A stretch of DNA of 64,000 bases from Escherichia coli O127:H6 str. E2348/69 (GTDB lineage: Bacteria; Pseudomonadota; Gammaproteobacteria; Enterobacterales; Enterobacteriaceae), in assembly GCF_000026545.1 (NCBI RefSeq), contig NC_011601.1; one strand, written 5' to 3'. Shown here in pieces: positions 57,732 through 57,772 of this stretch. How positions within the stretch are numbered: the stretch's first letter is position 1; each line of letters opens with the position of its first letter. The position numbers and the translations under genes were made by a program. The notes beneath the pieces were generated by a model. The model was not told the origin of the DNA. It made no database searches and worked only from the letters and a program-made list of their open reading frames with translations.

Positions 57732-57772
57732 ATTGCCTCCCCCCGGTATGTGTACTCATGTTTAACTATAGG

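Follow-up and report, generated by a model that had tools for sequence, protein, structure and literature searches.

In Escherichia coli K-12 MG1655, the DJ-1/PfpI gene yhbO (b3153) lies on the plus strand between yraR (b3152) and yhbP (b3154). It is divergent from yraR, with 127 bp between them, and the 3' ends of yhbO and yhbP overlap by 21 bp. In the literature, there is dispute over the enzymatic activity (deglycase or glyoxalase) of DJ-1/PfpI proteins. Cells without YhbO are available as laboratory yhbO knockouts of K-12. Here, we analysed a 64-kb stretch of the chromosome of E. coli O127:H6 strain E2348/69 (hereafter, the window), in which yraR and yhbP are direct neighbours. As in the laboratory knockouts, cells of this strain would lack YhbO; in contrast to them, the window allele is natural, shortens YhbP and probably also rewires yraR expression. 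The original prediction, which took yhbO to lie between yraR and yhbP in K-12, held that yhbO is missing from this site together with its promoter, which would be an unusual loss of a normally conserved gene. The K-12 order proved correct according to the MG1655 annotation, and yhbO b3153 between the two genes rules out that yraR and yhbP are adjacent in K-12 too.

Results

The E2348/69 locus lacks yhbO and its divergent promoter region

Gene order in the window is lpoA, yraN, diaA, dolP, yraQ, yraR, yhbP, yhbQ, yhbS, ubiT, ubiU, ubiV, yhbW, and the genes flanking the site (dolP, yraQ and yraR on one side; yhbP, yhbQ, yhbS and ubiT on the other) have the same order and orientation as around b3152-b3154 in MG1655. 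According to the open reading frame (ORF) list and the sequence, both neighbours of the site are encoded on the minus strand: yraR (57096-57731) specifies an intact NAD(P)H-binding protein of 211 aa with 99% identity to K-12 YraR (Pfam PF13460, 35.6 bits; cut-off 27.2), and yhbP (57773-58195, stop codon included) a protein of 140 aa. They are separated by exactly 41 bp (57732-57772, minus strand), a spacer that occupies the place of K-12 yhbO and the 127-bp divergent promoter region. A tblastn search with K-12 YhbO (E<=1e-5) gave no match in the 64-kb window; the predicted 41-bp distance without yhbO was thus borne out by the ORF list, the sequence and tblastn alike. A DJ-1/PfpI gene (PF01965 / TIGR01382, for which K-12 YhbO as reference scores 194.9 and 233.6 bits, respectively) is present in the window neither as an ORF nor as a remnant. 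The order yraR-yhbO-yhbP is found in MG1655, EC958 and N68, and not in the window.

Pairwise alignment with MG1655 showed that the whole of yhbO is missing from the window. Homology to K-12 ends at the yraR ATG and restarts inside yhbP, ~15 bp before the end of the gene, so that three parts are missing: yhbO itself, the divergent promoter region between it and yraR, and the seven final codons of yhbP. The expectation that gene and promoter are absent together therefore held. The matched span measures 1100 bp in the window versus 1705 bp in yhbO-positive genomes, and the net difference of 605 bp is the amount by which the window locus, without yhbO and without the 127-bp divergent intergenic region, is shorter than that of K-12. 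At the junction, ~60 bp that include the yhbP tail do not significantly resemble the yhbO-positive allele; judged from this alignment, the yhbO-less junction is not a clean excision.

The change extends into both neighbouring genes. YhbP has 147 aa in K-12 and 140 aa in the window, with 96% identity over 140 aa and differing C-terminal tails (ending in KKLVWQR in the window versus KKMIWLRDSGTEQA in K-12). The shortened protein still belongs to the YhbP family (NCBIfam NF002900, 260.9 bits; cut-off 176), its residues 1-140 corresponding to profile positions 4-143 of 150, with the last 7 positions missing. In yraR, the first six codons carry four synonymous changes that are tied to the yhbO-less allele, with GTT TTA ATT in the window versus GTA CTG ATT in yhbO-positive E. 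coli.

The spacer provides a Shine-Dalgarno sequence for yraR

The spacer contains a Shine-Dalgarno sequence, GGAGG (CCTCC on the plus strand, 57736-57740), which sits 4 nt before the yraR ATG and differs from the K-12 version. Neither a promoter-like nor a terminator-like site was found in the 41 bp, no stable fold was detected (no better than shuffled sequence, z = +0.95), and no Rfam family matched the spacer near its gathering score. Because the spacer has a Shine-Dalgarno sequence but no promoter, terminator or stable hairpin, yraR is probably co-transcribed with yhbP, and we infer that transcription would start from a promoter in the yhbP/yhbQ intergenic region.

Local alignments of the spacer to the yhbO-positive allele (window versus N68, and four Citrobacter pairs) scored no better than those of shuffled spacers. 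Matches seen by eye (GTTAAAC, CATGAG and GGGGAG-GCAA) had raised the possibility that the spacer is a remnant of yhbO or of the K-12 intergenic region, which was rejected as local alignment did not exceed the level of shuffled spacers. We likewise considered CTATAG as the TA-duplication footprint of a transposon at a CTAG site and dropped the idea, having found no supporting evidence. Since the similarity between the spacer and the yhbO allele is at chance level, breakpoints and the origin of the spacer are not demonstrable.

The yhbO-less junction is found in about 2% of complete E. coli genomes

Among 5426 complete E. coli genomes, a yhbO probe matched 5318 (98%), and a 74-bp junction-specific probe matched 106 (about 2%), 103 of them at >=99% identity. 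A chimeric probe combining junction and yhbO matched 5424 genomes in 5427 places. As 5318 and 106 add up to 5424, the yhbO-bearing and junction-bearing sets are disjoint, and no junction-bearing genome has a copy of yhbO elsewhere at the sensitivity of megablast, which detects only copies of ~85% nucleotide identity or better. Absence of yhbO is hence the minority state.

The junction-bearing genomes include those of CFT073, Nissle 1917, ATCC 25922, LF82, NRG 857C, ABU 83972, MP1 and E2348/69, all of which we take to belong to phylogroup B2. In CFT073, Nissle 1917, ATCC 25922, LF82 and ABU 83972, the 74-bp junction is 100% identical to that of the window, and the RefSeq annotation likewise shows yraR adjoining yhbP. 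Nissle 1917 differs from the window in the flanking haplotype only, with part of yraR being 93.5-97% identical. Our literature search turned up no publication noting that these strains lack yhbO.

Related junctions occur in other Escherichia species and in Citrobacter

For a broader comparison, we used the corresponding loci of 80 Enterobacteriaceae species (488 kb), with one genome per species other than E. coli. Of the 80 species, 51 share one yhbO-positive geometry (convergent overlap on yhbP, ~127-bp intergenic region), which spans Salmonella, Citrobacter, Enterobacter, Kosakonia and Klebsiella. In 19 of the 80, yhbP and yraR are adjacent without yhbO. The gene is thus only moderately conserved at this site. 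The loss is also not specific to one strain: beyond the 106 E. coli genomes, E. albertii and E. whittamii have the junction as well, and 12 Citrobacter species have a related form of it.

In E. whittamii (locus L002) and E. albertii (L007), the junction has the same geometry and a near-identical spacer of 42 bp; in the 12 Citrobacter species, yhbP and yraR lie 38-55 bp apart. All of these junctions carry a common signature, CTATAGTTA in the minus-strand reading, which in the window occupies positions 57763-57771 (minus strand) directly 3' of the yhbP stop codon. It occurs once, at the junction, in each of the 14 yhbO-less Escherichia and Citrobacter loci as well as in the window, and was found nowhere else: not in the 488 kb of the 80 loci on either strand, not in any yhbO-positive locus and not in the rest of the window. 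The window, with co-oriented yhbP and yraR, a 41-bp spacer and CTATAGTTA directly after yhbP, shares this junction. E. albertii, E. whittamii and the C. freundii-related Citrobacter likewise have co-oriented genes, CTATAGTTA after yhbP and a Shine-Dalgarno sequence before yraR. In contrast to the window, the TAG within CTATAG is the yhbP stop codon in Citrobacter and the rest of the spacer has diverged; in the Citrobacter group of R56, NCU1 and Awk4, 12 extra bases precede CTATAGTTA.

In total, at least three structurally unrelated types of yhbO-less junction were observed, namely the CTATAGTTA type, a ~10-bp gap typical of an operon (Yokenella, Trabulsiella and Enterobacter soli) and a ~100-bp gap (Klebsiella spallanzanii). 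In distant relatives, the context downstream of yhbP varies and includes yraR, yhbO, nrdG, ridA/pyrI and unrelated genes; a protein search at the level of 90% clusters returned close relatives only.

Two further Escherichia loci show yhbO in decay. In the locus recorded as E. coli SCPM-O-B-8794 (L004), a 7-bp deletion at yhbO nt 459-465 causes a frameshift at ~codon 154 and replaces the last 19 residues, and this yhbO is probably a pseudogene. In Escherichia sp. MOD1-EC7003 (L005, 3440-4335), only the last ~38 yhbO codons are left; a REP-like repeat array of ~800 bp, which abuts dolP, has taken the place of all other yhbO sequence and of yraR and yraQ. The locus has here suffered a separate loss, and a larger one.

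The haplotype tied to the yhbO-less state spans 74 bp

The window flanks to either side of the junction share 99-100% identity with the yhbO-positive strains N68 and EC958, and all differences from these two strains fall inside 57717-57790 (74 bp; no strand assigned), several of them in the last yhbP codons. This block, to which the haplotype of the yhbO-less state is confined, is identical in Nissle 1917 and ~8-11% divergent in E. whittamii and E. albertii. The divergence of the block between E. coli, E. whittamii and E. albertii (~8-11%) is similar to that of the flanks between these species, so that the allele does not seem to have been acquired recently. With a YhbP of 99% identity, E. whittamii was considered as a recent donor and rejected: the flanks are only 92-95% identical to E. 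whittamii, as against 99-100% to N68 and EC958.

Sequence variation is also seen next to the block. Within the yhbO-less group, the E2348/69 and Nissle (L083) types are 3-6.5% apart in the 3' half of yraR (57000-57400 in the window), and the yhbO-positive strain N68 is 100% identical to the window over the same positions. This pattern indicates mosaic recombination next to the indel.

The yhbO genes of N68 (L084, 4764-5282) and EC958 (L082, 1982-2500) have only ~94% nucleotide identity to MG1655 yhbO. They are as divergent from K-12 as the yhbO genes of other Escherichia species, with flanking genes being 96-99% identical, and 1028 genomes fall into the 90-95% band of yhbO identity. Divergence may thus have a local hotspot at this locus, around the indel.

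Other differences between the window and K-12

Comparison of the window with K-12 revealed several further differences. Between alx and sstT lies a 1.56-kb insertion (3701-5261), against 76 bp in K-12; it encodes an IS4-family transposase of 457 aa, which is annotated as ISEc13 (NCBIfam NF033590, 514 bits). Only three records, those of two O127:H6 genomes and of E2348/69, match this insertion at 100%; two further genomes have it between alx and sstT at 99.2-99.3% identity. The genomes with the 100% match hold ~27-30 ISEc13 matches each.

Four K-12 segments are missing from the window: yhaI (~650 bp; 18228-18269), yhaB-yhaC (~1.6 kb; 32900-32962), the prlF-yhaV toxin-antitoxin pair (~1 kb) between garD and agaR (39746-39816), and the yraHIJK fimbrial operon (~5.5 kb, MG1655 3286994-3292479) between agaI and rsmI (51259-51359). 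Conversely, the window has a 2.3-kb segment (43032-45334) that K-12, with agaW and agaA annotated as pseudogenes, has lost by deletion, so that the aga cluster seems to be intact in E2348/69. Near rnpB (~33067-33130), a 64-bp stretch occurs once in the window versus three matches in K-12.

Discussion

Taken together, the yhbO-less allele of E2348/69 is an old, ordinary presence/absence polymorphism and not a private or recent loss. We consider it likely that the window carries a long-standing natural allele that goes back to a deletion, most likely a single one, with later persistence or recombination, linkage trimmed to 74 bp, no YhbO and co-transcription of yraR with yhbP. A deletion, which most likely occurred once, would have removed yhbO together with the divergent promoter region and the seven final yhbP codons, leaving the 41-bp spacer with its new Shine-Dalgarno sequence for yraR. 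The allele would then have persisted, or spread by homologous recombination, among Escherichia (E. albertii, E. whittamii and ~2% of complete E. coli) and Citrobacter, while recombination cut the linked haplotype down to 74 bp. The predicted outcome is cells that lack YhbO and read yraR together with yhbP from the promoter between yhbP and yhbQ.

That yhbO was deleted recently and in this isolate only could be suspected from its presence in 98% of complete E. coli genomes. The 74-bp junction, however, is shared by 106 genomes of several lineages as well as by E. albertii and E. whittamii. Within the junction-bearing group, the E2348/69 and Nissle types are up to 6.5% apart in the yraR flank; the allele is therefore old, and we see next to no chance of a strain-specific event. 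It is just as improbable that yhbO was merely moved to another place in the source genome or that the gap is an assembly artefact, as the sets detected with the chimeric probe are disjoint at megablast sensitivity and 106 independently made complete assemblies share the junction. Separate, recurrent deletions at a hotspot in Escherichia and Citrobacter, instead of one shared allele, would fit the repeated loss of yhbO, which is clear from the three or more junction types, the frameshift and the larger deletion. Against this stands CTATAGTTA, which is found at the junction of all 14 yhbO-less loci of the two genera and of the window, is absent from yhbO-positive loci and is not derivable from yhbO-positive sequence. 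Because independent deletions would not make the same novel sequence, the CTATAGTTA-class allele most likely had a single origin and was inherited or exchanged across the two genera, and recurrent deletion is very unlikely as its source.

A more serious competitor is the opposite polarity, in which the tight, yhbO-less linkage of yhbP and yraR is ancestral, the K-12-type allele arose by insertion of yhbO and the window has lost nothing. The spacer without a detectable yhbO remnant fits such an insertion, as do the lack of yhbO in the basal Escherichia species E. albertii and E. whittamii, the operon-typical gap of only ~10 bp in Yokenella, Trabulsiella and Enterobacter soli, and a distant relative (L087; YhbP 46% and YraR 52% identical) that has yhbP followed by yraR without yhbO. 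However, 51 of 80 species over many genera share one yhbO-positive geometry, a relative with 45% YhbP identity has a 78%-identical yhbO that is again convergent with yhbP, the divergence of yhbO between genera (81-84% nucleotide identity) looks vertical, and the yhbO-less junctions are of several unrelated types. An ancestral absence is accordingly judged unlikely. As no deletion breakpoints are demonstrable, the direction of change is read from distribution only; on that basis, the widespread yhbO geometry, the convergent yhbO of a distant relative, the three or more junction types and the decay of yhbO in other Escherichia favour loss.

Against loss, an ancestor of the genus that already lacked yhbO would fit the state of both E. 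albertii and E. whittamii. Since the divergence of the 74-bp island matches that of the species, and since yhbO of N68 and EC958 is unusually divergent from that of K-12 (94% identity), presence and absence of yhbO could even form a long-lived polymorphism that crosses species and genus borders (Escherichia and Citrobacter) and is maintained through balancing selection, niche-dependent selection or recurrent exchange of alleles. We regard this extension as conceivable, if doubtful.

The locus reveals no new kind of system, and its only mildly unexpected part is the sharing across species of an allele with a linked island of 74 bp. For population genetics, it offers a tidy case of an old cross-species indel allele whose linked haplotype has been eroded to this size. 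For the biology of E. coli, it means that E2348/69, CFT073, Nissle 1917, ATCC 25922, LF82 and ABU 83972 are natural yhbO nulls with a different yraR upstream region. Because these widely used model strains lack the gene, results obtained in K-12 or O157 on YhbO, on glyoxal/methylglyoxal defence and on the RpoS regulon are not directly transferable to them; conversely, the yhbO-less strains are ready-made natural knockouts.
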